Positions 40,730 through 64,000 of a stretch of DNA of 64,000 nucleotides are shown piece by piece. Below the pieces are notes generated by a model, which ran no database searches, was not told the origin of the DNA, and worked only from the letters and a program-made list of their open reading frames with translations. The position numbers and the translations under genes are program-made. Within the stretch, counting starts at the first letter, position 1. Each line of letters starts with the position of its first letter. The stretch comes from an uncultured Pseudomonadota bacterium (lineage in GTDB: Bacteria > Oederibacteriota > Muellerivitia > Muellerivitales > Muellerivitaceae), in NCBI GenBank assembly GCA_963836235.1, contig CAWIIP010000002.1, positions 1,120,001 to 1,184,000 on the forward strand, given 5' to 3'.

Positions 40730-41272
40730 ATGGCTTCACGAATGAACATCAAATTCAAGAAAGACCATTTCCACCGCCTAAAGAACCGGAAGACTCCCGC
40801 TTCCCACCAAAAAAAAGCCGCCGCCAAATCTTCCCACCGGGCCCGCGTGGATTGGCATCAGTATTTCATGAATATCGCCACGGAAGTGGCCAGTCGCTCC
40901 ACCTGTGACCGTAAGCATGTGGGGGCTGTCATCGTGCGGGACAAGACTATTCTCTCCACCGGCTATAACGGAAGCGTTCGGGGCCTTCCCCATTGCGACG
41001 ATCAGGGACACATGATGGAGGATGGCCATTGCGTCGCCACCATCCATGCCGAGGCCAACGCTATCATCCAGGCCGCCAAGAACGGAGTTCGGGTGGATGG
41101 CGCCGATATTTACATCACCGCGTCGCCTTGCTGGAACTGTTTTAAGATCGTGGCTAACGCGGGAATTAAGAACATCTACTATGGGGAATTCTACCGGGAC
41201 GACCGCATCTTCGACGCGGCCAAACAGTTGAAAATGCTGGTCAGCCAGATCAAGATTTCTAAAACCCGCTAA
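40730..41272 (+). CDS. dCMP deaminase (ComEB-like)
   Basis: 'RSTC.RKHVGAV', 'TGYNG', 'HAEANA', 'PCWNC'. Confidence 0.9.
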   Translation: MASRMNIKFKKDHFHRLKNRKTPASHQKKAAAKSSHRARVDWHQYFMNIATEVASRSTCDRKHVGAVIVRDKTILSTGYNGSVRGLPHCDDQGHMMEDGHCVATIHAEANAIIQAAKNGVRVDGADIYITASPCWNCFKIVANAGIKNIYYGEFYRDDRIFDAAKQLKMLVSQIKISKTR

Positions 41273-41276
41273 ATCT

Positions 41277-41738
41277 TCAGCCCGCAACCTTTTCGAGCGC
41301 CTGCCGCGCGTAAAATTTCAGCGGCTTCAACAAGCCCCACTTTGAGTCTTCCAAATCCTTTTCACCGAGCCATTGAATATCTTTGTGTTCCTCGATGTTC
41401 AATTTCACCTCGCCGGACTTCACCCGGGCGAAATAAACCATCCCGATATGCCAGTGCGGTTCTTTAATGAGGTGGATATCCAAGTATTGGGTATTCAGGA
41501 GGGGAATGAACCCCGCTTCCTTTTCCAACGGCGGACGCTCCCCGACCAATTCCACTTCCAAGCCGCTTTCCTCCCACGCCTCCCGGATCGCCGCGTCTTC
41601 CGGGTTTTCATCCAGCTCAATATGCCCCCCGATGGGAAGCCATCGGTTTAATTGTTTATGGAAAATGAAGAGGACTTTCCTGTCCTTGACGATAAAGATG
41701 GAAACGGTGAAATCAATTTTTTCGTGGAGATGGGGCAT
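41277..41738 (-). CDS. NUDIX hydrolase
   Basis: Nudix box 'GGHIELDENPEDAAIREAWEESG'. Confidence 0.92.
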   Translation of the reverse strand: MPHLHEKIDFTVSIFIVKDRKVLFIFHKQLNRWLPIGGHIELDENPEDAAIREAWEESGLEVELVGERPPLEKEAGFIPLLNTQYLDIHLIKEPHWHIGMVYFARVKSGEVKLNIEEHKDIQWLGEKDLEDSKWGLLKPLKFYARQALEKVAG

Positions 41739-41813
41739 GGGGGAATCATAACATCCGGCTCAAAAATTAATAGGGTGGGTTTTCCCCGCCTTTTTTTATT
41801 CAAAAACTTAGTT

Positions 41814-42230
41814 TTAGGGCTTGGTTCTCTTTTTCGTAATTTTTTTCGCCAGATGTTTTTTAATGGGATTCCAATAACTCTCATGCCACCCTTTGTTGAA
41901 ATGGGGAGCCTTGTGGTCCGGCACCGCCGTGTGGGTCATGGTCAAGAGGGTCCCACCGGGGGCCTTTTCAAAGGTAAGCACCAAAATCGAATCATGATCC
42001 GAGTTCTTGAATTCGGCCGTTCTCCAGGCTTGGGTGATCATCCGGCCCGGGATAATTGCCAAATTCTTCCCCCGGATATACCCGTCCCAAGCGGTAAAAG
42101 ATCCGCCCACTTTCGAGCTAACGGTGGCTTTCCCTCCCGTGGCTTCCGAGTGTTTTTTGGAATCGAGGAAGAGATTGAACAGCTCTTTCGGAGTGGCCTT
42201 AAATTTGACTTTGTGGATGATGGTTTTCAT
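41814..42230 (-). CDS. SRPBCC/AHSA1 domain protein
   Basis: 'VGGSFTAWDGYIRG', 'ITQAWR', 'GWHESYW'. Confidence 0.85.
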   Translation of the reverse strand: MKTIIHKVKFKATPKELFNLFLDSKKHSEATGGKATVSSKVGGSFTAWDGYIRGKNLAIIPGRMITQAWRTAEFKNSDHDSILVLTFEKAPGGTLLTMTHTAVPDHKAPHFNKGWHESYWNPIKKHLAKKITKKRTKP

Positions 42231-42314
42231 TTTACCCCCTTAGTTTTGGACATTCTAAAGCCACAGCGGATAAATCCAATGTTAAACCCTCGAAAAGGTC
42301 CGGTGGGATATGGG

Positions 42315-42380
42315 TTGTGCCTTTAATAAATTTGGGTACAATATGGCCCCCTGACTTGGCTGGCGAAAAAAAGGTACAAT
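42315..42380 (+). promoter_or_regulatory. Two candidate tandem sigma70 promoters for the tRNA locus
   Basis: TTGTGC-N16-TACAAT (42315-42342) and CTGACT-N18-TACAAT (42351-42380). Confidence 0.5.
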
Positions 42381-42414
42381 TGGGCCGGTGGGTTCGATGG
42401 ACTCACCACAAGTT

Positions 42415-42454
42415 GGAGGGTTAGTCCTAATTGGTAAGGCAGTGGACTTGAAAT
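42415..42454 (+). tRNA. tRNA-Ser(TGA) 5' half only, broken just after the anticodon loop
   Basis: GGAGGGT-TA-GTCCTAATTGGTAAGGCA-GTGGA-CTTGAAA-T; the expected TCCAC, variable arm, T-arm and 3' acceptor strand do not follow. Confidence 0.85.
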
Positions 42455-42521
42455 TTTTACCGGGACTTTTCCGACATTTCCAAAAAAATTTTTAAAAATC
42501 TCGTTGCTCTCAGCGCATTCT

Positions 42522-42564
42522 AAAAGCCTTTGCCTGTAATGATCTTACAGCAAGGGCTTTTTTT
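42522..42564 (+). terminator. Intrinsic terminator downstream of the tRNA half
   Basis: aaaagcctttgcctgtaa-tgatc-ttacagcaagggcttttttt. Confidence 0.7.
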
Positions 42565-42569
42565 GTGGG

Positions 42570-42639
42570 TGACGGTCAAGTTTCCTACCTGACGGTCGAG
42601 AACCTCAAATGACGGTCATGAATGACACGGGAATGACAC
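42570..42639. repeat. Arm-type binding-site-like direct repeats
   Basis: TGACGGTC at 42570, 42590, 42610 (20-bp period); GAATGACAC at 42620 and 42631. Confidence 0.75.
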
Positions 42640-42931
42640 AGGGCGTTTTTGAAATTTTCTTGTGGTCCCCTTTCCCGCTTAACTACCACGGGCAGTGAAA
42701 GGCAATGGACAACTGTGAAGTGCCTCTTCGCGAGGCCGGACCCTTCCGGTGTGACATGGATATGACACGGAGTGCATCGGAGTTAGTTTTCAAAACCTTC
42801 TTGTGTTCATCTGTTCTCTTTAGCTACTACTCGTAGCGGGAGGCAGTGGACAATTGTGAAATGCCCTTCTCCCCTTTCGAATCGGGCCTTTTCCAACCAG
42901 CCGAGTTTAATTTGATGCTAAAATGTGTAGC

Positions 42932-43690
42932 ATGGCTACACAAAACAAAAGCAAATTGAACCGAATCTTTACGGAATGGCCCCACGGCGCGGTCATTACC
43001 CTTAAATGGTTGTCCCAAAGGGGCGTAAGCCGGTTTTTGGCCCGGACCTATGTGAAGGGCGGTTGGATAAAATCCATGGGGGCGGGAGTTTTCTTCAAGG
43101 CCGGAACCAAACCCCTTTGGTCCGACGGGCTCCATGCCATCCAGAATCAACTCAAACTTCCAATTCATGCCGGGGGCGAGACCGCTCTCTCGTGGAATGG
43201 TTACGGCCATACCGCTTCCATGGGTTCCTTGCCACCCGCCTACCTATTTGGCCCACAGGGAATAAAATTGCCCTCCTGGTTTCTCCAACACGATTGGGGG
43301 AATAAGATCCAATACCAAACCACGGATTTTTTGCCCTACAAAAAGGAATTCGGCTTTACACAGGATAGGCAAACCGGTATAACCCTGTCCTCTCCTGAAA
43401 GAGCCATGCTTGAAACCCTCTTGTTAATGCCCCAACGCATAACTTTTGAAGGCGCGGCCCATTTGATGGAAGGCCTATCCACTTTGAGACCGGATTTGAC
43501 GGCGCGCCTCCTAAGAGCTTGCCGATCCGTCAAAGTGAAGCGTTGTTTTCTCTATTTAGCCGAACAAATAAACCACACATGGTTCCATCGTCTCGACCTT
43601 TCCAAGGTGGACTTGGGCAAGGGAAAAAGGGTTGTGGTCCCAGGCGGCGAGTTTGACCGAAATTACCAAATCACAGTTCATCCCTGGTGA
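42932..43690 (+). CDS. Type IV TA AbiEi-family antitoxin (AbiEi_3-like), orphan
   Basis: 'SKLN....WPHG', 'HAGGETAL', 'SSPERAMLE', 'CRSVKVKRCFLYLA', 'DLGKGKR'. Confidence 0.85.
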   Translation: MATQNKSKLNRIFTEWPHGAVITLKWLSQRGVSRFLARTYVKGGWIKSMGAGVFFKAGTKPLWSDGLHAIQNQLKLPIHAGGETALSWNGYGHTASMGSLPPAYLFGPQGIKLPSWFLQHDWGNKIQYQTTDFLPYKKEFGFTQDRQTGITLSSPERAMLETLLLMPQRITFEGAAHLMEGLSTLRPDLTARLLRACRSVKVKRCFLYLAEQINHTWFHRLDLSKVDLGKGKRVVVPGGEFDRNYQITVHPW

Positions 43691-43703
43691 TCCATTCCGC
43701 TTG

Positions 43704-43735
43704 TTGTAAGAAAAATCACTACGTTTTTCTTACAA
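43704..43735. terminator. Perfect 12-bp inverted repeat between convergent genes
   Basis: ttgtaagaaaaa-N8-tttttcttacaa; terminator or operator relic. Confidence 0.45.
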
Positions 43736-43769
43736 TTGGGCTCATCAATTTATTAAATCATTTACGGCT

Positions 43770-46097
43770 TTAACCCATCATCCCCAATGATCGATAGGTC
43801 TTTTGCCTACGCCAGGCCATTTTCTTGAGGACCGGCACAAAATCATCCAAGTAGTCATAGACCACGGCGTTCTTCTTGCCTTCATAAGTTCGCTGAACCC
43901 TACCCAAATATTGGATAAGCTTTCCTTTGAAGGAAATGGGGAAAGCCAGGAATAGGGTATCCAGTTTGGGGCAGTCAAAACCTTCCCCAAGATATTGGCC
44001 GGTGGCCACCAGCAGGATTTCGGCGTCGGGGGTCGCTTCCATAACCTCTTGGAACACCGCCGCCCTTTCCTTTTTTCCCATGCCACCGGTTAAAAGCTTG
44101 GGTGATTTCCCCGCTTCCCTCAGCAGTTCAACCAACCTATGGCAATGCTCTTTCCGTTGGCTCAACACCAAACATTTCCGCCCTTCCGAGAGGGCTTGCG
44201 CCACATCCTCGACGACCATCCTGTCTCGGTCCTCATCCTGGGCTAAGGCCCGGAAAATCTCCTGGATGGAAAATTCTTCGCCAGCTTGCTCAAAACGGAA
44301 GTTGGTGGGCCGGATTTTAAGCGTGGTTTCCAAGCCCTCTTTGTCTTCGGCCATTCGGTAACGGAGCGGGCCGCATTGCATGAAGATCAAGTCCTGAAGC
44401 CCGTCCCGGCGGATGGGCGTGGCGGTCAACCCCAAGATATACCGGGCCGGGGCCTGTTTGATGTACTGCTCAAATGATACGGCGGGCAAAACATGACACT
44501 CGTCCACCAGGATGAAACCGTACCGGGAAAAGAATTCCCTCAAATCCTCCATCCGCTTGAGGCTCTGGATCATGGCTAAGTCCACGATGCCAGTAGAACG
44601 TTTCCTACCGCCGCCAACTTGGCCGATTTGCTTGGACTTCAATCCCAACATCTTTTTCAATTGGGCACGCCATTGGTCCAGGATCGGCTTACGGTGGGAA
44701 AGGATAAGGGTTGGTAGGTTGCGCCGGGCGACGGCGTAACAACCCATCACCGTCTTCCCTGCTCCCGGCGGGGCCACAAGAACCCCGCTTTCATACTGCA
44801 ACACCACTTTTATGGCCTTCTCTTGGTTCGCGGTTAATTCCCCTTGAAACTTAAATTTCAGGGGATCATGAGCCAACCGGGTGTCGGTTATTTCCACGTA
44901 GCTTCCAGCCTCTTCCAATATTTTTTTCAAATCCTCCAAGGTGCCACGGGGGAAGTGGAGATAGGCGGCGTCCTCTCCGTAACAGCGGATGAATCTCGGA
45001 ATCCCATAAGTGGAAAATCTCATGTTCTGGCGCTCATAGAAAACCGGGTTGTGCAGGGAAGCCAGGTGCTTAATCTGGGATAAAAGCCAAGGAGGCAATC
45101 CCGATTTTTCGACACTGACGGAAGCATCCAAGACACACCGAACCAATGCCGGAGCCGGGTATTTTTTCTTGAGGGCGGGCGAAACGGCTTTAGCCACCGT
45201 TTGAGGGCCGACTTCGATAGGCGGAATCTTTTCAAGTAACACGGACAACTGACCGGGGCTCAACCGTCGTACCGAGCTTAGGAAAGCCCATTGGTCGGGA
45301 TAGGGCTTCATCTCCGGGTCCGCTTGGTCCAAGAATTCGGTGCACCCCAATTCCCGTCGTTGCTTTTGAAGGGGCAGGGCGATCAAGTTTCCAAAACCGC
45401 CCCTTGGCATGAAGTCCTGGTTGGGGAAGAAGCGGTCATAGCTGGCTAAATCCACCTCGGCTCTTTTTTCCATGGTGTCCCGCAAGAGCCGTAAGCCCAA
45501 CTGTCGGGCGGATACGGCTTGGACGGGGGCCAAAAAGAATACCCAGGCGTGGCCGCCGTTCCCCGACCTGGATTTTTCAAGGTAGGCTGGAATGCCGTAG
45601 GAAGCGCAAGATTGCAGGTAGGCCAAAGCATCCAATTCCCAACCGGCCTTGTCGAAGTCGCAAGCCAAGAACCAGCAGGTGTTGTCTTTGAGGAGGGGAT
45701 AAACACCGATGGTCTTCTTGCCGGATAAATGATCCTGGACCACTTGATCGGTTAAGGGCAGGTACTTCTTAGGCTTTCCCTTTCCCACCCATGGATTTTC
45801 GCAAGCCGGGGAATAACCCTTTTTGCCGGTTGTCTGGTTCATCCACAATGCCGGATACACATCCTCCCGGCCCTTAAAGAGGATTCGGAAGAGGTTTATC
45901 TTCTCCTGGCTGGAAGAATGGGAATCCACCTTGGGCAGTGGTTCCGATTCCAAAGGCGGCGGCAAAGGTGCTTCCAGGGAATAATCGGCGGAGACTTCGT
46001 GAGCGGCGACGTCCGGCAGCCCTAATCGTCTTTTCAGTTCCGCGTTCTCAAGCGTTAACCGCTTGATTTCCTTAAGGGCATCTTCCAATTCAGACAT
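43770..46097 (-). CDS. AEP (TOTE-type primase-like) domain fused to SF2 DExH helicase
   Basis: 'FLACDFD', 'EKSRSGNGGHAW', 'GNLIALPL'; helicase 'PGAGKT', 'DECH', 'LTATP', 'GEGFD', 'QYLGRVQR'. Confidence 0.85.
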   Translation of the reverse strand: MSELEDALKEIKRLTLENAELKRRLGLPDVAAHEVSADYSLEAPLPPPLESEPLPKVDSHSSSQEKINLFRILFKGREDVYPALWMNQTTGKKGYSPACENPWVGKGKPKKYLPLTDQVVQDHLSGKKTIGVYPLLKDNTCWFLACDFDKAGWELDALAYLQSCASYGIPAYLEKSRSGNGGHAWVFFLAPVQAVSARQLGLRLLRDTMEKRAEVDLASYDRFFPNQDFMPRGGFGNLIALPLQKQRRELGCTEFLDQADPEMKPYPDQWAFLSSVRRLSPGQLSVLLEKIPPIEVGPQTVAKAVSPALKKKYPAPALVRCVLDASVSVEKSGLPPWLLSQIKHLASLHNPVFYERQNMRFSTYGIPRFIRCYGEDAAYLHFPRGTLEDLKKILEEAGSYVEITDTRLAHDPLKFKFQGELTANQEKAIKVVLQYESGVLVAPPGAGKTVMGCYAVARRNLPTLILSHRKPILDQWRAQLKKMLGLKSKQIGQVGGGRKRSTGIVDLAMIQSLKRMEDLREFFSRYGFILVDECHVLPAVSFEQYIKQAPARYILGLTATPIRRDGLQDLIFMQCGPLRYRMAEDKEGLETTLKIRPTNFRFEQAGEEFSIQEIFRALAQDEDRDRMVVEDVAQALSEGRKCLVLSQRKEHCHRLVELLREAGKSPKLLTGGMGKKERAAVFQEVMEATPDAEILLVATGQYLGEGFDCPKLDTLFLAFPISFKGKLIQYLGRVQRTYEGKKNAVVYDYLDDFVPVLKKMAWRRQKTYRSLGMMG

Positions 46098-46129
46098 TGG
46101 CCCCCCCCTTGGAGAAGTCACGGGAGGGA

Positions 46130-47350
46130 TTACGCGAAGTAGTTGAGCGCCTCGGCGGCCCCCGCCACAAGCACTTCCCCGTTTTCGAGTTTGTGTTTTT
46201 GCCAAACGGAGCGGTTAATGATTTGAAGCCCCCTTTTACAGGGCAAGGCCGCCAAAAAGCGGGACCAGTTTGGGGAAGGCTCGGTGTCGGAACTTTTAAC
46301 TTCCACCGGCAACCAGGGAACTCCATCCCGGACGATCAAAAAGTCAATTTCATGTTTTTGCTTGTCCCTTAGGAAAAACAGGTCAAAAACACCCTCGCCG
46401 GTATCCGTCCAGTAATTGCAAGTTTTCAAAAGGTGGCAGGCCACTAAATTTTCAAATTTGGCCGATTTATCCGGGATGAAGGAATAATCCCACAAATAAA
46501 TTTTTCCTTCCTTCCGAAGCGAACGGGGGATACTCCTCGTATAGGGCTTAATCTCAAAGAGGTAGTAAAGTTCCTTAAGATAAGACAGCCATCTTTTTGT
46601 CGTCGGTATGCTTGTTTCAAGGTCGCGTCCCAAGGAAGCCAAGCTCATCAGGGACCCAATTTTTTCCGGGAGCATCGCCGTCATCATCTCGATACGGCCC
46701 AATTCCGGCAGGTGGGAAAGATCCCGCAAGTCCTCCCTTATTACCAATTGTTCCCGGTTGTGGTGCCAAATAAGGGCTTTGTTCCGGTCCTGGGCCAATA
46801 GCGGTTCCGGGAACGGGCCGTAGGCCATTAAGGATTCCAAACGCTTCTGAACGGCCTTATTGGATCCATCCTCCCTCCCGAAAAGGGAAGACAATAATTT
46901 GTCCGGGGAAAGGACGTCCGGCCTTTCCATTTCCCTCACTGTGAATGGATGAATCCGAAAATTCAAATGACGCCCTAATAAGCTGTCGCTTCCTTTCCTG
47001 TAGACGTTCAACCTGGCGCTTCCGGTGACGAGGAAGTCGCAGGGTTTTTCGAGCGTGTCATAAACGCCTTTGAGATTGCGTTTCCAACGCCGGTCCTTAT
47101 GAATTTCATCAAGGACCACCAAGGGAATTTCCTTCCCCTTTCCCTGGGGGATAAGTGAAGACGGATTCATGGCCCAGGTACGGCGGAAAGCGATATCGTC
47201 CCAATTCTTGTAAAGCCCCGTGGCCCTTTTTTGAAGGAACATTTTCGCCAAAGTCGTTTTACCGCATTGGCGCGGTCCCGAGAGGAACGCGATCTTGTGC
47301 CCCGAAAAGGCGTACTTTTCTATTGCATGCGCGACAGACCTGTTTTTCAT
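46130..47350 (-). CDS. AAA+ ATPase with DUF4143-like C-terminal domain
   Basis: 'GPRQCGKTT', 'LDEIHK', 'VTGS', 'LLGR', 'FENLV', 'EIDF', 'VEVK'. Confidence 0.9.
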   Translation of the reverse strand: MKNRSVAHAIEKYAFSGHKIAFLSGPRQCGKTTLAKMFLQKRATGLYKNWDDIAFRRTWAMNPSSLIPQGKGKEIPLVVLDEIHKDRRWKRNLKGVYDTLEKPCDFLVTGSARLNVYRKGSDSLLGRHLNFRIHPFTVREMERPDVLSPDKLLSSLFGREDGSNKAVQKRLESLMAYGPFPEPLLAQDRNKALIWHHNREQLVIREDLRDLSHLPELGRIEMMTAMLPEKIGSLMSLASLGRDLETSIPTTKRWLSYLKELYYLFEIKPYTRSIPRSLRKEGKIYLWDYSFIPDKSAKFENLVACHLLKTCNYWTDTGEGVFDLFFLRDKQKHEIDFLIVRDGVPWLPVEVKSSDTEPSPNWSRFLAALPCKRGLQIINRSVWQKHKLENGEVLVAGAAEALNYFA

Positions 47351-47352
47351 GA

Positions 47353-47456
47353 TGACCATTATAACGTCTGACGTTAGTTTGGTCAAAAACCCCTTTTTCA
47401 GGGGTGACCTTCATGTAAGTTCGACCAAACTACGGACACTCCGCAGTATGGTCGAA
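47353..47456 (-). promoter_or_regulatory. Sigma70 promoter with two GACCA-N21-TGGTC palindromes
   Basis: Minus strand TTGACC(47386-47381)-N17-TATAAT(47363-47358), 7 nt before ATG 47350; palindromes 47353-47385 and 47420-47456. Confidence 0.75.
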
Positions 47457-49750: not shown

Positions 49751-50533
49751 ATGCTAATGGTTGATTTTGAAGCAAAGAGCTTAATTGAATATCTTTACAA
49801 CGTAAATTTAATTGAGAAAGAATATGGAATCGATAAATGGCGGCCCAAAATGGATCACATATGGTTTCGAGGGGTTACCAACGCCGACAATCATCATTTA
49901 ATTCCAACAATTTATAGAGAGCCGATAGAATCGAAAAGTGAAAGAGAAATTAATAGGGATTTCAAATTACAATCGCGCCCTTTTACCAAATCTCAAGCAT
50001 TAAATGATTTGGAACTTTTATTTATTGGACGGCATCATGGGCTGCCTACAAGATTATTGGATTGGTCTGCCGGTTCATTAATAAGTCTTTACTTTGCTGT
50101 TCACGAATACAAAGAACCAACCGATGGAATGGTTTGGCTTTTACGTCCAAGGAAATTTAATAAACTCACCATCAATTTGAAATCCATCCCTTCAGAACAT
50201 GAGAATAAGAAAATATTTAATAATTATTTGAAACTACCCATTAAACAAGCACTGCCGATGGCAATCCGATCCTCGTTTATTACTGAAAGGATTATTTCTC
50301 AAAAAGGTTTTTTTACAATTCATGGTTCTGAAAATATTTCAATAGAGTCAATTCAAAAAGCTAACAAAAAAACAACTTTTCTAAAAAGCGTACGAATTCC
50401 TTTTAACAACAAAGTTGAGATTTTAAATCAACTTGCCAAGGCCGGTATTTCCCAAAGCACCTTGTTTCCAGATTTGGATGGTCTAAGTGCAGAAATTAGA
50501 GATCGATACAACAAAGAAAGAATTGTTAAATAA
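49751..50533 (+). CDS. FRG domain protein
   Basis: 'WFRG', 'RHHGLPTRLLDWS', 'RIISQKGFF', 'LFPDLDGL'. Confidence 0.92.
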   Translation: MLMVDFEAKSLIEYLYNVNLIEKEYGIDKWRPKMDHIWFRGVTNADNHHLIPTIYREPIESKSEREINRDFKLQSRPFTKSQALNDLELLFIGRHHGLPTRLLDWSAGSLISLYFAVHEYKEPTDGMVWLLRPRKFNKLTINLKSIPSEHENKKIFNNYLKLPIKQALPMAIRSSFITERIISQKGFFTIHGSENISIESIQKANKKTTFLKSVRIPFNNKVEILNQLAKAGISQSTLFPDLDGLSAEIRDRYNKERIVK

Positions 50534-54100: not shown

Positions 54101-56257
54101 TTGGAAGAGGATAGAATTGGTCTGGTTCTAGGCCGTTTTGGGCATGCGTCAAAGTCTAAAAATAGGCCTTTCCTTGGGGAGATTAGTATTACAACGAAAG
54201 TATTTCCTATCGATATCAGCTCCAAACATTTGGACGATGTAAAGAAACTCGGGAAAAAGAATTCTTCTACCCTTGGGTTCTTCCCAGATGGAGCATTTGA
54301 GGACCATGCCAATCGTAAAAATATAATCGTTATTACCATAAAAGACGAATTCGCTGGTTACTTGTTGTATCGGATTTCGAACAATTCTGTAACGATTGTC
54401 CATCTTTGTTTAAGTGATAAGTTTCAGGGGAAAAATTTATCTAAAAATTTAATAGATCATTTGAAAAGTGAAATGACGATGTTTCGCGGTATCCGTTTGC
54501 TTTGCCGAAAAGATTACACAACTAATAAGATTTGGCCCAAACATGGTTTTATTCCAATTGGTGAAAAAAAGGGACGAGGGAAGGAAGAAAAAACACTGAC
54601 CTGTTGGTGGTTTGATCATGGCCACCCGACCCTATTTACTTTTGCCGCCGAAAAACAGATCGAAAACAAACGAATCGGTTTCGTTGATACAAACATTCTT
54701 ATCGATTGGTTTAATGACGAGAGCGAAGAATCTAAAGCTTTGTTGGCTGATTGGTTGAAGGATGAGTTGGAACTTTGTGTAGCCGATGAAATATTGAATG
54801 AGATAGACCGTTCTGAAGATGCAGAAAAAAGAAAAATTATGAAAGAACGAGCACATAACTTAACCAGGCCCCCTTTTTCAAAAGAACTCTTCAAAACCGT
54901 ATCGAAACGAATTCGGAAACATTTTCCTGCTGAAATGTCCGAAAGCGACCAATCAGATTTAAAACATTTAGCCCAATCAATTGTTGTTAATGCGGATTTT
55001 TTTATCACCAGAGATCAAAGGCTTTTGGATTGTTCGGATAAAATAAAAGAAGAACATTCAATGGAAATTCTTCGCCCTTCGGATTTAATTGTGAAACTGA
55101 ATGAATCAAATTATCATCCGGTGCGTTTAGCGGGAACCACCTTAAGTGTTAGAAATGTATTGAGCGGCGAACAAGAAACAATCTTTGATGAATTTCGGAG
55201 CCTGGCGGACAGAGAAACCAAGAGCGGCTTTTTGGAAAAACTCAGAATATACTTATCAAATCCCGCGAACATTGTATGTTCTGTTGTTTTAGATGACACC
55301 CAGAAGTTGGCCTTTTTTGTTTTAGATCGTTCTGACAGGAATAAACTTTCAGTAAAATTTTTGCGATTTAAAAAATCCAACCTAACTTCGACACTTTTAA
55401 GCCATGTCCTTTTTAATTTTTTAAGAATTTGCGTGAACGAAAACCGTTCCAGCATTGAAATTGCCGATTCGCTTTTATCTAGCGACATTCAAAAACAACT
55501 TATAAAAGATAAATTCATTAAACATGGCAAGCACTGGTTTAAGATTATTTTTGATTTTGTCGGTAATAAAAAACAGATTAATAAAAAGGTTCGAGAATTA
55601 ATTTCTGGGAAGTCCCTCGATTTTAAGATTTTTTCCGGTCACGATAAAATCCTAAAAAATCAAAAATTCTTTAAAAGCGCCGAAGCTATATTCGAATTAC
55701 AGAAAATATTTTGGCCGTTAAAAGTGAAAAGTTCTAAAACGAATTTTTATTTAGTTCCAATAAAGCCTGGCTGGGCAAAAGATTTATTTGACGAAAATAT
55801 TGCGCGCGAAGACCTTTTCGGAGCAAAAAAGGAATTGGCCATCAGCCGGGAACAAGTTTATTATCGAGCTTCAAGACCGTCTGGAATCAAAAGTCCGGGG
55901 GGCATTTTATGGTATGTGAGCGAAGATAAGGCATATAGTGGAACGAGTTGTGTTCGGGCCTTTTCGCAATTAGAATCCGTTGAAATTTCAAAACCCAAAG
56001 AGCTGTTTAAAAAATATGCTCGTCTTGGGATATATACTTGGGATGATGTTTTGAAAACTGCCAAAGGAAGCATTCAAAATGATGTTATGGCAATGAAGTT
56101 TTGTGATACCGAGCTTTTCAAAAATCCCATTCCATTGAAGCAACTAAAAGAGATATTTTCCAAGAAAAAAATTGGTCTTCAGGTGCAATCGCCTTTGAAG
56201 ATCTCCAACAAGTTATTTGTTGAAATCTATAACTTAGGGCACGGAAAAAATGGATAA
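54101..56257 (+). CDS. GNAT-PIN-(GNAT-like)-PUA/EVE-like multidomain protein
   Basis: GNAT 'AGYLLY..IVHLCL..FQGKNLS..W..HGF'; PIN 'FVDTNIL..DLKHLA..FITRD'; C-terminal 'VPIKP..VYYR..ILWYVS'; start uncertain. Confidence 0.75.
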   Translation: MEEDRIGLVLGRFGHASKSKNRPFLGEISITTKVFPIDISSKHLDDVKKLGKKNSSTLGFFPDGAFEDHANRKNIIVITIKDEFAGYLLYRISNNSVTIVHLCLSDKFQGKNLSKNLIDHLKSEMTMFRGIRLLCRKDYTTNKIWPKHGFIPIGEKKGRGKEEKTLTCWWFDHGHPTLFTFAAEKQIENKRIGFVDTNILIDWFNDESEESKALLADWLKDELELCVADEILNEIDRSEDAEKRKIMKERAHNLTRPPFSKELFKTVSKRIRKHFPAEMSESDQSDLKHLAQSIVVNADFFITRDQRLLDCSDKIKEEHSMEILRPSDLIVKLNESNYHPVRLAGTTLSVRNVLSGEQETIFDEFRSLADRETKSGFLEKLRIYLSNPANIVCSVVLDDTQKLAFFVLDRSDRNKLSVKFLRFKKSNLTSTLLSHVLFNFLRICVNENRSSIEIADSLLSSDIQKQLIKDKFIKHGKHWFKIIFDFVGNKKQINKKVRELISGKSLDFKIFSGHDKILKNQKFFKSAEAIFELQKIFWPLKVKSSKTNFYLVPIKPGWAKDLFDENIAREDLFGAKKELAISREQVYYRASRPSGIKSPGGILWYVSEDKAYSGTSCVRAFSQLESVEISKPKELFKKYARLGIYTWDDVLKTAKGSIQNDVMAMKFCDTELFKNPIPLKQLKEIFSKKKIGLQVQSPLKISNKLFVEIYNLGHGKNG

Positions 56258-56783
56258 AAATCAGGAAACAGAACGAGTTCTCCTTTTGTCAATAAAACCC
56301 AAGTATGCCGACAGGATATTTTCTGGGGACAAAAAGGTAGAACTTCGAAGAACCAAGCCCAAACTGAAAAAGGGCGATATTGTTGCGGTTTATGTTTCCG
56401 CTCCAGTGATGGCTTTATCCGGCCAATTTGAAGTGGAAGAGGTCATACAAGAATCACCGGAGAAGTTATGGTTTGAGATCCAAAACGAAGCGGGCGTAAC
56501 GAAGTCCGAATTTGAAGATTATTATCGGGGATCAAAAATGGCTTTCGGCATCAAATTTACAGATGTTAGGAATTTTCAATACCCGGTTTCGCTTTTCAAT
56601 TTACGAAAAACTTGGCTCGGATTCAGCCCACCACAAATTTACAGATATTTGCCAAGAAGTGAATACAAACTCGTTTTTTCACGTAAAGAACTGCTAACAC
56701 TTAGAATTACTCGAATTAAAACTTATCTGCTTTCTATTTTTTATAAACCGTTCTTCTTAAGGAAACAATCTTGGCTGAACTAA
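56250..56783 (+). CDS. ASCH domain protein
   Basis: 'LLSIKPKYADRIFSGDKKVELRR', 'VYVSAP', 'PPQIYRY'. Confidence 0.88.
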   Translation: MDKNQETERVLLLSIKPKYADRIFSGDKKVELRRTKPKLKKGDIVAVYVSAPVMALSGQFEVEEVIQESPEKLWFEIQNEAGVTKSEFEDYYRGSKMAFGIKFTDVRNFQYPVSLFNLRKTWLGFSPPQIYRYLPRSEYKLVFSRKELLTLRITRIKTYLLSIFYKPFFLRKQSWLN

Positions 56784-58753
56784 TCTGGGATGGAAAATAC
56801 AAAGATGGAAAAAAAGTAGCTCCAGTCCGAATTGCCCTGCCTTTTCAAACCATTGAGACTGTCAACGAAAGTACCCAAGATCGCCAAAAATCCCTTGATA
56901 TGTTTTCTGGAAACAGGGATGCCAGTTGGAAAAATCGCTTAATTTGGGGCGATAAAAAATATGTATTGCCTTCATTACTTCCGGAATTTTCGGGAAAAGT
57001 GAATCTTGTTTATATTGATCCCCCTTTTAATGTTGGCGCTGATTTTTCTTTTACTGCGGAAATACCTGATGAGCCCGATTCGGAAGAGGGAGAGCCAGCG
57101 CGATTTTTAAAAGAACCTAATGCTATCGAAGTAAAGGCGTACAGAGATACTTGGGGTGCCGGTCTTAATTCATATTTGGAGTGGTTTTATGAGACTGTTG
57201 TTTTGCTCAGAGAATTACTCTCCGAAAATGGCAGCATTTATGTTCACCTCGACTGGCATGTTGGACATTACGCTAAAGTGATCCTAGACGAGGTGTTTGG
57301 TATTGAGAGTTTTCAAAATCATATAACCTGGAAACGAAGCACTCCGAGGGGAAATGCTGGTAAAAAATATCCTGAATTAACCGACTATATTTTTTTCTAT
57401 TCTAAAACTCCAAATAACATTTGGAACGACCAATACACATCCTATCGTCCCGAGTATGTTGAAAAATATTATCAGTATAAAGACGAAAAAACAGGACGAT
57501 TTTTTCAACCAACTAGTCTGTTAGGGCACTCAGGAGTTAATCCTGTTTATGAATGGCGCGGATTAAAAAAACCGTGGAGGTATCCAAAACATCGATTAGA
57601 AGAATTGGATAAAGCTGGTTTGCTTTACTGGCCGGAAAGGGGAGATGTCCCAAGATTTAAAAGATTTTTAGACGAGCAGAAGGGGGTTCCTTTGCAATCG
57701 TTATGGGATGACATTCCGCCAGTAAACTCGCAAGCGTCGGAGGATACAAAATATTCGACTCAAAAGCCCGAAGCTTTGCTTGAACGAATTGTTAAAGCCT
57801 CATCGAATGAAAATGATTTGGTGGTGGATTGTTTTTGCGGAAGCGGCACAACTGTTTCGGTTTCAGAAAAACTTAAACGGCGTTGGATAACGTGCGATTT
57901 AGGACGTTATTCCATTCATACCGCTCGTAAGCGTCTTTTATCCATCCCGGATGTAACTCCGTTTGTTATCCAAAATCTTGGGAAATATGAGCGTCAAGCT
58001 TGGCAAGTTGCCGAGTTTCCAGAACCAGGAAAGCAAGTTGAAAAGGAATTGAAATATCGAAAGTTTATTTTGGATTTGTACAAAGCAGAACCCATTGCAG
58101 GGTTCACTTGGCTTCATGGCATCAAAAAGGATCGAATGGTTCACGTTGGCGCAGTTGATTCGCCGGTCACTTTGGCGGATGTAAAAGCTATTGCGGCAGA
58201 GACTTGGAAATCAGTTGGTAAAGGCAAGGATTCACCCAAGAAGGCAGGAGTAGATATTCTTGGATGGGACTTTGCCTTGGAAGTGAACGAAATTTCAAAA
58301 CAAATAGCTGCTGAATCCGGCGTTGAAGTTCACTTCAAAGTCATTCCTCGTGAAGTCCTCGAAAAGAAAGCTGTGGAGCAAGGTGACATCAAGTTTTTTG
58401 AGTTGGCTTCTTTGGCTGTGGATATCAAACCTAGTGGTTTGGAAGTAACCGCCAACTTAATGGATTTCGTTATACCCCCTAATGACGTTCCGGAAGATGT
58501 CCAGAAGGCTATTAAGCATTGGTCCCAATGGATTGACTATTGGGCTATAGATTGGGATTACAAAAATGATACTTTTCACAATGAATGGCAAAGTTATAGG
58601 TCTCGCCAAAACCAGAATTTAGATTTAACCACTATCCATTGCTATGAAACTCCAGGAGACTACCAAGTAGTCGTAAAGGTCATCGATATTCTCGGCAACG
58701 ACACCACCAAGCTTTTGAAAGTCCAGGTTTCCGATGCCAAAAAGAAAAAGTAA
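56771..58753 (+). CDS. mod: Type III R-M methyltransferase (Mod)
   Basis: 'NRLIWGD', 'YIDPPF', 'TQKPEALL', 'DCFCGSGTT' (beta-class order). Confidence 0.88.
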   Translation: MAELIWDGKYKDGKKVAPVRIALPFQTIETVNESTQDRQKSLDMFSGNRDASWKNRLIWGDKKYVLPSLLPEFSGKVNLVYIDPPFNVGADFSFTAEIPDEPDSEEGEPARFLKEPNAIEVKAYRDTWGAGLNSYLEWFYETVVLLRELLSENGSIYVHLDWHVGHYAKVILDEVFGIESFQNHITWKRSTPRGNAGKKYPELTDYIFFYSKTPNNIWNDQYTSYRPEYVEKYYQYKDEKTGRFFQPTSLLGHSGVNPVYEWRGLKKPWRYPKHRLEELDKAGLLYWPERGDVPRFKRFLDEQKGVPLQSLWDDIPPVNSQASEDTKYSTQKPEALLERIVKASSNENDLVVDCFCGSGTTVSVSEKLKRRWITCDLGRYSIHTARKRLLSIPDVTPFVIQNLGKYERQAWQVAEFPEPGKQVEKELKYRKFILDLYKAEPIAGFTWLHGIKKDRMVHVGAVDSPVTLADVKAIAAETWKSVGKGKDSPKKAGVDILGWDFALEVNEISKQIAAESGVEVHFKVIPREVLEKKAVEQGDIKFFELASLAVDIKPSGLEVTANLMDFVIPPNDVPEDVQKAIKHWSQWIDYWAIDWDYKNDTFHNEWQSYRSRQNQNLDLTTIHCYETPGDYQVVVKVIDILGNDTTKLLKVQVSDAKKKK

Positions 58754-61298
58754 AAGAACTCCCAAAGCTCAACCTGATTTACTGGATGTTACGGCAAAGC
58801 TGAGGACTGGACCTTGCGTCCCCGCATTGAGGGAAGCCGTTAAGGCCTGGCAGGCGGGAGGCTATAAAGGCACCACCGAAACAACCCGAAGGTTACTCAA
58901 CTTTTGGTTCGAGACCGACCACAAACTGTCGAATGGTAGGCCTTTTAAGTATCACCACTCCCAGCGGGAAGCCTTCGAGACGCTTATCTTCGTTTGGGAA
59001 TACGAGAAAGTCCGTACTCGCAAGGCTCTCTTAGAACGGTACGCCACTAGCCTCAAAAATCTTCGCCTTCCAACCTATGACGAGTTCGCCCGTTATTGCA
59101 TCAAGATGGCAACGGGCTCCGGTAAGACCAAGGTAATGTCTCTGGTGGTAGCTTGGCAGTTCTTCAATGCTCAATGCGAAGAGCCGGAAGAAGCAAAACA
59201 ATATGCAAAGACCTTTCTCATCATTGCCCCCAACGTCATTGTTTTCGAGCGTCTCAAAACAGATTTTGAGGGTGGCCGAATTTTTCGGACTGACCCTATC
59301 ATCCCCAAGTTCTTTGAAATCTTTTGGGATTTTGATGCCGTCATGCGCCATGACGGTCAAAAGGCTCATAGCGAAGGAATGTTGTTTCTTTCAAATATTC
59401 AGCAGTTTTATGAGCGGTTGCAAAACATTAAATACAATGAACCGGAAGAGATGACGGCGGTTTTGGGAACCAAGCCGAGTTTGGCTAAGCTGGAGGTTTC
59501 GGATTTTTCGGAGCGCATCGGCTTGAGGGCGGGAAACTTGATGGTCATCAACGATGAAGCCCATCACACGCATGACGAAGAAAGCGAATGGAACACCATC
59601 ATCCGGCGGCTCCACCAGAAATCACCCATTGCTATGCAGGTCGATTTTTCGGCCACTCCCCGTTTTCAAAAGGGTCAACTTTTTCCTTGGATCATTTCCG
59701 ATTATCCCCTTAAACAAGCCATTCTGGACGGGATTGTCAAACGTCCATTTAAGGGAATCGCCCATATCCAAGAAGCCAAATCCAAGACGGCTAGCGTCCG
59801 CTACAAAGGATTCCTGGTAGCCGGGGTTGAGCGGTGGCGTGAATACAAAGAACAATTAGGGCCGCTCAAGAAAAAACCCATCCTATTCGTCATGCTGAAT
59901 GATACGGATGAGGCGGATGATGTAGGCGATTGGCTTCAAACTAAATACCCTAAGGAATTTGGGGAAGATAAAACCCTCGTCATCCACACGGACAAATCGG
60001 GGGAAGTCTCTAAGACCGACTTGGATAAAGCTCGCATTGCCGCCCATGAGGTCGACGACGATCAAAGTCCCGTCAATGCCATTGTCAGTGTGTTAATGCT
60101 TCGTGAAGGATGGGACGTGCAGAACGTCACAGTGGTCGTTGGATTGCGACCTTACACGGCCAAGGCCAATATCTTACCCGAACAAACCATAGGGCGGGGT
60201 TTACGGTTGATGTTCCGGGGCCATGGCAATGGTTATACCGAACGGGTGGATGTGATTGGGAACAATGCCTTTATTTCTTTCGTGGACGACCTGGAAAAAC
60301 TTGAAGACATCAAGCTGGATTCTTTCGATGTCGGTAAGGATAAACTTTCAATTGTCTCTATCATGGTTGACCCGAGCAAAAAGAAATTTGATATCGGATT
60401 GCCGCTCATATCTCCTGTCATGGTGCGAAAGAAAAGCTTGGCTGATGAAATCGCGGAATTGGATGTCATGCGGTTTCAGACTCCGAAACTCCCCATCAAG
60501 AAAGGCGATTCCGAGGAAACCACCTTCACCTACGAGGGATTCGACTACATCACGTTGGTCAAGGAAGTAGAACGGAAATACACGATTCCCGAACCCCAAA
60601 CACCCCAGGAAGTCATCGGCTACTATGCCCGGCAGATTGCCCAGGAAGTCAAACTGCCCTCTCAATTCGCGGCTTTGGTTCCGAGAATAAAAGAATTTTT
60701 TGAAAAAAAGGCTTTTGGTAGGACTGTCAATCTGGAAGAAACCGAAATCCTGAAGGCCATGACTACCAACGTTTCACAATATGTTTGCGTACAAGCTTTC
60801 AAGAAGGAACTGCAAAGCAAGATTGTATCGGAACAGACTCCAAAGATAGAAGGAAAGGACAGACTTTTGTCTGATCTAAATCCCCCATTCCCTTGGGGAA
60901 GACCGGTATATGAGAGTAAGAAAACTATTCTTAATCTTGTGCCTTGTGATAACGAATTTGAACGTACCTTTGCTAAGTTCCTGGATAAAGCGAAAGACGT
61001 GAAAGCCTTCTCTAAAATTCCTCAAAGTTTTGGTTTCTCGATCGACTACGTGGACGGCAATTATAACCAAAGAAGCTACCATCCCGACTTTGCGGCGATT
61101 GCCGAAGATGGAACCAATTGGCTTTTGGAAACAAAAGGTCAAGAAGGCGAAGAAACCAAGTTCAAGGACGCGGCGGCGGAACGTTGGTGTGAGAACGCGA
61201 CTGCATTGACAAAAAATACTTGGCGCTATAAGAAGATCCCCCAAAAGAAATTTATGGAATTAGAACCGGATTCCTTGGCGGATATCGAAGTTATTTAA
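58734..61298 (+). CDS. res: Type III R-M restriction subunit (Res)
   Basis: 'MATGSGKT', 'NDEAHH', 'SATP', 'LREGWD', 'EQTIGRGLR', nuclease 'PDF...LETKG'. Confidence 0.88.
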   Translation: MPKRKSKRTPKAQPDLLDVTAKLRTGPCVPALREAVKAWQAGGYKGTTETTRRLLNFWFETDHKLSNGRPFKYHHSQREAFETLIFVWEYEKVRTRKALLERYATSLKNLRLPTYDEFARYCIKMATGSGKTKVMSLVVAWQFFNAQCEEPEEAKQYAKTFLIIAPNVIVFERLKTDFEGGRIFRTDPIIPKFFEIFWDFDAVMRHDGQKAHSEGMLFLSNIQQFYERLQNIKYNEPEEMTAVLGTKPSLAKLEVSDFSERIGLRAGNLMVINDEAHHTHDEESEWNTIIRRLHQKSPIAMQVDFSATPRFQKGQLFPWIISDYPLKQAILDGIVKRPFKGIAHIQEAKSKTASVRYKGFLVAGVERWREYKEQLGPLKKKPILFVMLNDTDEADDVGDWLQTKYPKEFGEDKTLVIHTDKSGEVSKTDLDKARIAAHEVDDDQSPVNAIVSVLMLREGWDVQNVTVVVGLRPYTAKANILPEQTIGRGLRLMFRGHGNGYTERVDVIGNNAFISFVDDLEKLEDIKLDSFDVGKDKLSIVSIMVDPSKKKFDIGLPLISPVMVRKKSLADEIAELDVMRFQTPKLPIKKGDSEETTFTYEGFDYITLVKEVERKYTIPEPQTPQEVIGYYARQIAQEVKLPSQFAALVPRIKEFFEKKAFGRTVNLEETEILKAMTTNVSQYVCVQAFKKELQSKIVSEQTPKIEGKDRLLSDLNPPFPWGRPVYESKKTILNLVPCDNEFERTFAKFLDKAKDVKAFSKIPQSFGFSIDYVDGNYNQRSYHPDFAAIAEDGTNWLLETKGQEGEETKFKDAAAERWCENATALTKNTWRYKKIPQKKFMELEPDSLADIEVI

Positions 61299-62295: not shown

Positions 62296-64000
62296 ATGAC
62301 GAAGAAAGATTGGGAGTGGTTCAACCAGCTTGTTTTACTTCCGTTGGCACTCCCCTTTATTTTTATAGGCCTCAATTTCCTCTGGCCCTTTTTCGGGGCC
62401 GAGAACCTGGACGGAGTCATCCCGGACCCGGACTTGGTCAACCGCCACTTCATGGGACCGGTTACATTGATTTTCGCCGTTCCTTACGTTCTCGTCTTCC
62501 TGTTCAGGAAGAGCGAGAACGTCCTCTTGCCAACCAAGTTGGCCGTCTGCCCCACTATGGCGATTGCTGTCCTAGACCCCCTATTTTCGACCTACAGTAA
62601 GCTTTACCTCGTTTCTGTCGCCCTCTTGAGCATCCTTGGCTTGTTCGGGCTTTTCTGGAAGACAGTCAAAAAGAAGAAAGAGGAATGGGGACCATATCCC
62701 TTAGTTCTTGATTCCAACTTAAAGAACATCCTCTCCACGTTCTCATTACATGAGAACGTCCAAATAGTCGGGGGAACCGGCACCGGCAAGACCCATTACG
62801 TCATCAAACCCTTCATCGAACAGACCATTCGACAGAACCTGGGTTGTTTCATCCTGGACGTCAAAAGCAACATGCTCCCGGACGTGGCCTATTACGCCTT
62901 CAGGGCTCATGGCCGCTTCATCCGCCATTTCACCTTGGCCGATATCTTCAATTCCCACAGCTACAATGGGCTTTACGGCAATAACCCGGACGCTATCGCC
63001 AACCGGGCTTTCGCGGCCCTCTATTACGACATCAGGGGCACCGAACCCTACTACCGGGACTTGGCCGAAACCTACCTCCACAACCTTATTGGGTTACTCA
63101 AAAAAGAGATTAAGACCCTTACCTTCCAGGACCTTCTCACCTGTACCCAGGAAGTGGATACCTTCAAGACGATTGCTTGGTTCTGCTCCAAATACCCCGA
63201 CACTCATTACGCTAGGTACTTCCAAGAGCAGTGGCTTGATAAATCCCCTAAGGATCGCCGCACGGAGCTTTCAGGCCTCTTGAACAAACTCCAAAGGTTC
63301 TGCAACAGCGAATGGTCCCATCTGCTCAATGTCCGCGAACCCGACATCAAGATGGAAGAAGTGGTGAAGCAGGGCCAGGTCTTCCTGTTTTCCCCGGACT
63401 CCGCCCGTTACCCACAAGACGCCAAGCCTCTCTGTATCCTGGCCATGATGGACTTGGCCGAGCAATTGGCCGACCGCTACAAGGTAGCGCCGGAAAAACC
63501 CTTCCGGGTTTTCCTGGACGAGTTCTACAACTTGGCTTACCCCAAGTTCATCGACTTCATCAACAAGTGCCGGGAAGCCCAGGTGAACCTCTTCTTGGCC
63601 CACCAGTCCTTGGGAGACTTGAGAGGCGTTTCCGAGGAATTCCTGGAACAGGTCATGAACACCGCTAGTAACAAGATCATCCTCCGAGTGAACGACCCGG
63701 ACACGGCGGAATCCTTCTCCCGGCAGTTTGGGACGGAACTCGACCAGGACGCCAGGGTGACTTCCTACAAGGCGGACCACACCCTGGCCGGGTATAGCGT
63801 CCCCATTACAGAAAAATTCAGGTTCCACCCCAACCGGATCAAGGAACTCAAGGTAGGTCAAGCCATCGTCAAGGCTATGGGGCAATCAGGGGTCCGTATC
63901 TTCCAAACCAACCTACGGCAGGCCGGCAAGCCGTGGGCTGGGTTCAATCCGAATACCGCCTTGGCCCATAGGGGCCGTCGCGAGGGAAACGAAACTTCGC
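62296..64000 (+). CDS. VirD4/TraD-like type IV coupling protein, partial (runs off window; absent from ORF track)
   Basis: Hand-translated: N-terminal TM helices, Walker A GGTGTGKT (62770-62793), 'FLDEF' (63511-63525), 'KCREAQVNLFLAHQSLGDL', 'DPDTAESFS'. Confidence 0.85.
   Translation, partial: MTKKDWEWFNQLVLLPLALPFIFIGLNFLWPFFGAENLDGVIPDPDLVNRHFMGPVTLIFAVPYVLVFLFRKSENVLLPTKLAVCPTMAIAVLDPLFSTYSKLYLVSVALLSILGLFGLFWKTVKKKKEEWGPYPLVLDSNLKNILSTFSLHENVQIVGGTGTGKTHYVIKPFIEQTIRQNLGCFILDVKSNMLPDVAYYAFRAHGRFIRHFTLADIFNSHSYNGLYGNNPDAIANRAFAALYYDIRGTEPYYRDLAETYLHNLIGLLKKEIKTLTFQDLLTCTQEVDTFKTIAWFCSKYPDTHYARYFQEQWLDKSPKDRRTELSGLLNKLQRFCNSEWSHLLNVREPDIKMEEVVKQGQVFLFSPDSARYPQDAKPLCILAMMDLAEQLADRYKVAPEKPFRVFLDEFYNLAYPKFIDFINKCREAQVNLFLAHQSLGDLRGVSEEFLEQVMNTASNKIILRVNDPDTAESFSRQFGTELDQDARVTSYKADHTLAGYSVPITEKFRFHPNRIKELKVGQAIVKAMGQSGVRIFQTNLRQAGKPWAGFNPNTALAHRGRREGNETS

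Follow-up and report, generated by a model that had tools for sequence, protein, structure and literature searches.

A probable reverse-polarity integrative island at the only tRNA-Ser(TGA) gene of an uncultured FCPU426 bacterium

Results

Inspection of the window (the whole 64,000-nt stretch of DNA that we analyzed) revealed an orphan tRNA half at 42415-42454, GGAGGGTTAGTCCTAATTGGTAAGGCAGTGGACTTGAAAT, which corresponds to the first 40 nt of tRNA-Ser(TGA) and is followed by unrelated DNA. It consists of the acceptor strand, the D-arm, the 5' strand of the anticodon stem, the loop CTTGAAA, and one further T, with the TGA anticodon at 42449-42451, and its last base is the first one after the anticodon loop. 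It is not called as a tRNA, which is to be expected of half a gene: ARAGORN and Rfam detected no tRNA in the whole window, and Rfam detected none around the orphan half at E values up to 10. Upstream, a promoter scan predicts a sigma-70–like site (CTGACT-18-TACAAT, 42351-42380, + strand), which we consider to be the native promoter of tRNA-Ser(TGA), although the scan score is weak by itself (1 site found vs. 0.5 expected in shuffled sequences); in its favor, a TACAAT or TAAAAT box is seen again at the unoccupied sites of relatives (see below). Between its TACAAT box and the tRNA start (42381-42414) there are ~22 extra nt with a small hairpin, GGTGGGTTCGATGGACTCACC; similar leaders are found in related genomes G002, G018, G009, and G005 and not in G001, G004, and G006, in which the box is 10 nt from the tRNA. 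Downstream, folding reveals an element-encoded intrinsic terminator (42526-42564, + strand, −19.6 kcal/mol), in which a bulged 13-bp stem (42526-42557) is followed by seven T (42558-42564). A simple terminator scanner overlooked this hairpin because of the bulge in the stem. Since an A-tract precedes the stem and a T-run follows it, the terminator is possibly bidirectional. An Rfam identity for it was rejected, all the matches (e.g., Ref64, 24.6 bits for a gathering score of 44.3) being sub-threshold, generic hairpin matches. The orphan half, its coordinates, the promoter-like site before it, and the terminator after it are thus as described in an earlier, sequence-only reading of this DNA.

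That reading had also placed an island in tRNA-Ser(TGA), with its boundary at the anticodon loop, and had suggested searching past position 64000 for CTTGAAATCCAC and elsewhere for other Ser(TGA) genes. The island and its boundary are borne out by what lies at the far end. While CTTGAAATCCAC is absent from the window, it is present at a right junction 2.7 kb past the window end, where it is preceded by an excisionase-like gene and an integrase (positions past 64000 are given in window-equivalent numbering). An own-genome search identified there a repeat (66751-66791, i.e., C2:1186751-1186791 of the source genome, G000) that is identical at 41/41 nt (E = 9e-17) to 42414-42454, the attL repeat, which spans tRNA positions −1 to +40 on the + strand. 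This right copy belongs to an intact tRNA-Ser(TGA) gene (66752-66838, i.e., G000:C2:1186752-1186838), predicted by ARAGORN and matching the Rfam tRNA family with 52.1 bits for a gathering score of 29. The orphan half lies 24.3 kb upstream of this gene, on the same strand. Among the 46 tRNA genes of the genome it is the sole Ser(TGA) gene, presumably essential for decoding UCA codons, and its sequence is identical to that of the tRNA at the unoccupied sites of relatives (see below). It is followed by tRNA-Ser(GCT). Short extra copies of the T-arm/acceptor 3' end are seen ~100 nt (about 95-125) downstream of both tRNA-Ser(TGA) and tRNA-Ser(GCT) (1686-1718 and 2040-2066 of locus L002, on G000:C2 beyond the window), and in locus L059 the Asp fragment, too, has a second one of this kind behind it. 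Such copies may have been left by a miniature element or by islands, since lost, on the 3' side.

The gene directly before the intact tRNA encodes a 367-aa tyrosine integrase (65612-66715, + strand, i.e., the tRNA strand), whose stop codon is 36 nt before the tRNA. Its PF00589 domain (residues 180-334) scores 93 bits for a cut-off of 27.1, and it also matches phrog_1 integrase (E = 3e-67). Residues R211 (in MRRGE), K237, H296-x-x-R299 (in HDLRH), H322, and Y331 are invariant in all five aligned integrases; we take these to be the catalytic R…K…HxxR…H/W…Y columns of the family. The start of the integrase gene is overlapped by an excisionase-like gene (65358-65615, 85 aa) with an HTH_17 domain.

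We infer that 42414-42454 is, very probably, attL of a ~24.3-kb integrative defense island, inserted by a tyrosine integrase in the anticodon loop of the sole tRNA-Ser(TGA) gene, with reverse polarity. The perfect 41-nt direct repeat bounds the island, and its right copy lies within an intact tRNA after the integrase, from which it follows that the element supplies the 5' half of the tRNA. In this model, tRNA positions −1 to +40 would be part of the element's attP, where they would come immediately after xis-int. The working tRNA at attR would thus be composed of an element 5' half and a host 3' half, while the host promoter and host 5' half would be left stranded at attL, where transcription from this promoter would run into the terminator at the edge of the element. 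Upon excision, attB would join the left flank to CCACCGGGGG, and the circular attP would read int, the 5' half, and then TTTTACCGGG. What is seen at the locus fits reverse polarity: the 5' part is displaced upstream in the same orientation, the intact tRNA is at the other junction beside element DNA, the integrase is inside, and related genomes display the unoccupied site.

The last point comes from a search of 31 genomes (including the source) with the left flank and half as query; 21 matched, and the copies were fetched and checked. The relatives are candidate division FCPU426 genomes from peat, bog, and soil metagenomes, and all of them, as well as the source genome, are metagenome assembled. 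We considered a site occupied when an orphan half with a homologous P' arm (the conserved left end of the island) was found along with a full tRNA preceded by a P arm or an integrase. This layout is present in 10 of the 31 genomes (G000, G001, G002, G004, G005, G007, G009, G015, G018, and G019), including G001, the only one of the same genus; the copies in G002, G004, G007, and G015 are on different contigs. Two orphan halves are present in G005, where one island has no integrase beside it, and the integrase ORF next to the tRNA in G019 is a truncated one of 191 aa. In four genomes from other genera of the family (G006, G010, G012, and G013), the site is unoccupied, with an intact tRNA directly behind a TACAAT or TAAAAT box located 10-16 nt 5' of it. 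Five others (G003, G016, G021, G024, and G029) have a single full copy and were not classified, and G028 has a 5' fragment of different extent. Island size (5 to 31 kb) and cargo differ between genomes at this site, which argues for turnover.

A single D-loop base distinguishes the orphan half from the rebuilt one in G007 (TAATTGG vs. TAATGG in L079 and L080), and a single D-loop substitution does so in G005 (TAATGGG vs. TAATTGG in L025 and L023/L024). These differences show that the two halves are of separate origin and that integration changed, or can change, the D-loop allele of the tRNA. The G005 locus on contig C69 (L024/L025) is a tandem array with three copies of the half, in which the middle orphan half stands behind a native-type TACAAT region, the outer half has the leader variant, and no integrase adjoins the outer island. 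The G005 element may carry the tRNA promoter along with the 5' half.

Joins diagnostic of excision were sought in Logan contigs from peat, moss, and soil metagenomes sharing a small fraction of words with the window, which we compared with positions 41000-44000; coverage was limited to 42414-42454. In the contigs of four metagenome runs, which drop rare variants, we saw only attR-type joins and neither attB nor attP junctions. P-arm sequence precedes the repeat in two of them (X3 and X6), the 3' half of the tRNA follows it in all four (X1, X2, X3, and X6), and none joins the left flank to the tRNA 3' half. The contigs thus correspond to the tRNA or attR of related populations.

The attachment site has an elaborate anatomy. 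The P' arm (42455-42640, + strand) is homologous to the left ends of five other islands in this genome (an own-genome search finds such a stretch in contig C5) and of the Ser-TGA islands of relatives. It contains three TGACGGTC repeats with an exact 20-nt spacing (42570-42617, + strand), a motif occurring seven times in the window vs. 1.2 expected; G001 and the Arg-TCG and Asp islands contain similar GACGGTC triplets. The excisionase or another accessory protein may bind at these repeats. Close to its inner end, the P' arm carries the site pair ATGACACgggaATGACAC (pattern ATGACACnnnnATGACAC; 42622-42639, + strand), which is unique in the window and lies 168 nt in from the left end of the island. 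A matching P-arm pair lies within the C-terminal codons of the integrase (66660-66677, i.e., L004 4660-4677) and has no second copy in the 10 kb surrounding the right end. The motif varies between islands and is the same in both arms of each (the G018 element has AAGGACTCCTATAGGACAC, for instance, and a Thr island has TAAGACACGAATAAGACAC), and we propose that these pairs are putative arm-type binding sites of the integrase. The terminator and the TGACGGTC repeats sit between the core and the left arm sites. All 15 P' arms that we looked at, six of this genome and nine of relatives, contain a hairpin followed by a T-run, with energies from −18 to −32 kcal/mol; in their distal stems, sequences vary and complementarity is kept. 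The terminator may act as an insulator. Most P' arms, including those of islands with a complete tRNA 3' part, have a conserved box, (C)AGTCCCCAGCA, that lies 10-14 nt 5' of the terminator (within 42455-42525 here). We rejected the possibility that the CAGTCCCCAGCA box is a T-arm relic because it also follows complete 3' parts in Thr islands.

The core itself departs from what is expected for anticodon-loop integrases. What comes after the loop in attL, and by extension in attP, is TTTTTACC, with TTTTT in place of the stem strand TCCAC, and only a shifted ACCGGG is shared with the tRNA. Since the P' side has no anticodon-stem 3' strand, the symmetric core expected for this class, with stem flanks on both sides, is not evident in attP. 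The edge of the att block, in contrast, falls at the loop, as it does in this class. The tRNA-derived blocks end at +40 for Ser-TGA, +41 for Ser-CGA, and +45 for Arg-TCG, while Asp and Thr blocks start at 26-33 and the 3' blocks of relatives at 26-34. Because all the blocks in the family begin or end there, the crossover is most simply placed in the anticodon loop.

The Ser-TGA island is one of six with a common attP layout, i.e., paired arm sites, a core at the anticodon loop, and a terminator. The genome encodes six paralogous integrases, 57-64% identical to their nearest paralog, and 40-110 nt past the stop codon of each there is a block derived from a tRNA. In three cases the block is a 5' part and the remainder of the gene comes after it, each of the corresponding tRNAs being single copy: Ser-TGA, Ser-CGA (a 19.9-kb island at G000:C2:1355083-1375080), and Arg-TCG (37.3 kb, C5:236069-273522). 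The other three are 3' parts, replaced by two Thr-TGT islands on the same strand in a tandem array (65 + 49 kb, C4:131762-245971) and by one Asp-GTC island on the opposite strand (8.6 kb, C2:500986-509751).

We found 34 loci with an integrase alignment in public genomes (a survey that overlaps in genomes with that of the 31 and is not independent of it), of which 32 were examined after dropping two partial matches (L065 and L066). A full tRNA follows the integrase in 10 loci (8 Ser-TGA and 2 Ser-CGA), and a same-strand 3' fragment in 18 (Leu-CAA ×6; Asp ×3; Arg-ACG and Phe ×2 each; Asn, Thr-CGT, Thr-TGT, Met, and Arg-TCG ×1 each); the rest comprise one weak match and three loci with no call, two of them at contig ends. 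All eight integrases with at least 67% identity in public metagenome-assembled genomes have a full tRNA-Ser(TGA) within about 50 nt downstream. In a quick, unrooted maximum-likelihood tree of 36 integrases (leaving out the partial L038, L065, and L066 and the interrupted L062), integrases group by the tRNA that they target. Those that replace the 5' part fall into three clades, among which 3'-replacing integrases are scattered, while the well-supported branches are compatible with a single origin, and the tree does not decide between single and several origins of the 5'-replacing type. The opposite-strand Asp integrase is nested in the same-strand Asp clade (SH-aLRT 99), and Arg-TCG is used by two separate integrase lineages, one replacing the 5' part and the other the 3' part.

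How is the rebuilt tRNA transcribed? The sequence-only reading had offered, as one alternative, that the element supplies a new 5' half and promoter at its far end. The 5' half is there, directly after the integrase, but no promoter was recognized: a promoter scanner found no sigma-70 consensus site in the 1.85 kb upstream of the tRNA. When the upstream regions of all 46 tRNAs were scored, the best hexamer pair within 70 nt reached 7/12 for each of the three rebuilt tRNAs. By the same scoring, several native tRNA promoters reach 10-11/12; near-consensus examples are those of Thr-TGT and Gly-GCC (TTGACG-17-TATAAT) and of Thr-GGT (TTGACA-16-TACAAT). The 36-nt spacer between int and the tRNA is partly conserved among 10 Ser-TGA elements and contains a weak candidate, TTGA(stop)nn-16/17-TA(A/G)G(T/G)(G/T), 11-13 nt before the tRNA; here it is TTGAGC-16-TAAGTG, overlapping the int stop codon. 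By eye, a ribosome-binding site is visible before xis and a clear promoter is not. The rebuilt tRNA might thus be transcribed from a weak promoter at the int stop codon, or it might be co-transcribed with xis-int and processed. In the Ser-CGA island, the stretch from the integrase stop to the rebuilt tRNA-Ser(CGA) contains a hairpin that resembles a terminator (CCCCTTTTCAACAAAGGGG, then TTT), only 13 nt ahead of the tRNA (within G000:C2:1374921-1374990), and this same hairpin follows int in the Thr islands. This P-arm hairpin deepens the question of how rebuilt tRNAs are transcribed.

At the other end, the native promoter is predicted to drive only the orphan half. In the transcript predicted from about 42388 to 42564, a long hairpin (within 42388-42480) would form between the 5' half of the tRNA and the initial ~25 nt of the P' arm. 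Folding of the 179-nt orphan transcript gives a minimum free energy of −50.4 kcal/mol, with a modest z of −2.6, and Ser-TGA islands share a conserved P'-arm start.

The body of the island extends from 42455 to the window end at 64000 and on to 66750 (24,297 bp between the repeats, no strand assigned), as delimited by the repeat, the right junction, the cargo, and GC content, which is 34-46% in the middle of the island vs. about 51% for the contig. The cargo starts with a gene for an AbiEi-type antitoxin/regulator (42923-43690, + strand), for which family scans of the island found no obvious AbiEii partner. Beside it there is an 811-aa fusion of a TOTE-type AEP primase-polymerase to an SF2 helicase (43770-46205, − strand; PF22548 AEP-TOTE, E = 1e-84). 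These are followed by an AAA_14/DUF4143 ATPase (PADLOC candidate PDC-S01; 46130-47386, − strand), an FRG-domain protein (PDC-S15; 49751-50533, + strand), a GNAT-PIN protein with an ASCH protein (PDC-M11A/B; 54101-56783, + strand), and a type III restriction-modification pair (56771-61298, + strand; Mod 56771-58753 and Res 58734-61298). PADLOC candidate PDC-S34, a ClpP-like protease, and RadC are also encoded. Finally, there is a TraG/TraD/VirD4-like coupling-protein ATPase (62296-64000, continuing to 64089, + strand), which is above the cut-off in Pfam and below all cut-offs in NCBIfam; the two ORFs adjoining it (303 and 139 aa) match no family. Scans of island ORFs (sets of 24, including five flanking-gene frames, 19, 10, and 20) detected no relaxase or type IV secretion families. 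With a coupling-type ATPase present and relaxase and mating-pair formation families not found, the island does not appear to be an integrative and conjugative or mobilizable element. Nor does it look like a prophage, since no capsid, terminase, portal, or tail gene was detected among 20 island ORFs, bar a weak secondary match of the ClpP-like protease.

Discussion

Several other explanations of this locus deserve to be weighed against a reverse-polarity island. The sequence-only reading had offered as its second alternative that the element does not restore the gene, so that tRNA-Ser(TGA) would be intact only after excision. A 64-kb window without an intact tRNA made this a natural thought, which is refuted by the intact, unique tRNA-Ser(TGA) at attR, 2.7 kb past the window and identical in sequence to the tRNA at relatives' unoccupied sites; we give it virtually no credence. 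That the junctions stem from misassembly, or from a chance or segmental duplication of 41 nt without site-specific recombination, is highly improbable as well. The genome is a metagenome assembly in five contigs, in which repeats can cause chimeric joins, but the layout of half, P' arm, integrase, and full tRNA recurs in independently assembled genomes, five more islands in this genome have an identical attachment-site architecture, and an exact 41-nt match is far beyond chance. It could also be proposed, as an addition to the island reading, that the unit of stranded promoter, 5' half, and P' terminator serves to produce a small RNA of ~175 nt, which would then be more than a by-product. The transcript would be bracketed by a promoter-like site and a strong terminator, and in the predicted fold the half pairs with the first 25 nt of a P' arm whose start is conserved among Ser-TGA islands. 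However, the z value of this fold is modest, and the terminator and P' boxes are also present in Thr and Asp islands, where no 5' half is stranded, so that attachment-site function and insulation explain them. We consider a dedicated small RNA quite improbable.

A more serious alternative, though still a rather unlikely one, is that the island is a fixed, immobile relic, whose repeat is a scar and whose xis-int genes are kept only because the sole tRNA-Ser(TGA) depends on the right end. Deletion of this end would indeed be costly, since the rebuilt tRNA has no recognizable promoter of its own; no excision product was seen in the metagenome contigs; and some of the 10 occupied sites among the 31 genomes are decayed, as in G019 and G005. 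Against this, the repeats of the present copy are identical throughout, the integrase is full length with all presumed catalytic columns kept, the excisionase-like ORF and both arm-site pairs are intact, and the variable cargo and size at this site imply turnover. We therefore favor an integrative island of reverse polarity over a relic.

Reverse-polarity integration into tRNA genes is rare but already described, and the island presented here is another case. A tyrosine-integrase element described by Zhao and Williams in 2002, and said to concern Mesorhizobium loti, reportedly duplicates and supplies the 5' part of its target tRNA gene rather than the 3' part. As far as the accessible account of that element goes, the supply of the 5' part is the same here, while the host (FCPU426), the target (Ser-TGA), and the defense cargo are different, and the present layout is one of three within a single integrase family of one genome.

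Other systems offer partial parallels. In the accessible text of a survey of Klebsiella pneumoniae islands, those of the arg2A-VII group (integrase clade I.d) are set apart from the rest ("in contrast to all other") as integrating upstream of their target tRNA gene, at a recombination site that covers its 5' acceptor strand and D-arm (bioRxiv 10.1101/2020.11.02.365908). These authors place the arg2 site at the D-loop, whereas in the present island the identity block extends to the anticodon loop, where we place the crossover. Compared with the anticodon-loop class of tRNA integrases in the classification of Williams 2002, as summarized in the same survey (bioRxiv 10.1101/2020.11.02.365908), the FCPU426 family is similar in having block edges in the loop, int beside attP, and tree clades defined by tRNA target. 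It also carries the usual 3' part in 18 of the 32 loci of relatives and in three of the six islands of this genome. Unlike in the canonical class, as far as that summary describes it, the block of the Ser-TGA island runs in the 5' direction, and the 5' half and upstream DNA come from the element. In archaea, 5'-distal integrations, including that of CalSub-E1 of Ca. Caldiarchaeum subterraneum, are mentioned in the available part of Krupovic et al. 2019 (PMC6563490), which cites Zhao & Williams 2002; CalSub-E1 is an archaeal element, and the resemblance to the bacterial island considered here is one of layout. The Islander algorithm, in the part of its description available to us, explicitly admits 5' fragments upstream of a tRNA gene. 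Among the matches listed, considering titles and the beginnings of abstracts, there was no paper on mobile elements in FCPU426. What is specific to the present case is the candidate phylum, the presence of three configurations in one integrase family and one genome, and a rebuilt tRNA at which no promoter is recognized.

It is tempting, although unlikely, to generalize further: a single FCPU426 integrase family with a fixed attP geometry (an arm pair in the int C terminus, a core at the anticodon loop, a terminator, accessory repeats, and a second arm pair) might freely swap the side of the core that has tRNA homology, with the tying of three single-copy tRNAs to xis-int transcription being a form of element control or addiction. 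If this were true, one polarity would give rise to 3'- or 5'-replacing islands, even on one tRNA, as with Arg-TCG, which is used both ways. Ser-TGA, Ser-CGA, and Arg-TCG would then be left without native promoters, and their expression, essential at least for Ser-TGA, would be tied to xis-int.

Taken together, these findings explain an odd half-tRNA and provide a clean, comparatively well-supported example of reverse-polarity integration in an uncultured candidate phylum. They raise the question of how a sole-copy tRNA is transcribed after its own promoter has been stranded. They also have a practical consequence for annotation, in that island finders and tRNA annotators should be prepared, in this lineage, for tRNA genes with 5' fragments upstream of them and for genomes with several islands of this kind. 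With three attachment-site configurations in one genome, this bacterium is a good system for understanding how integrases change the tRNA half that they carry.
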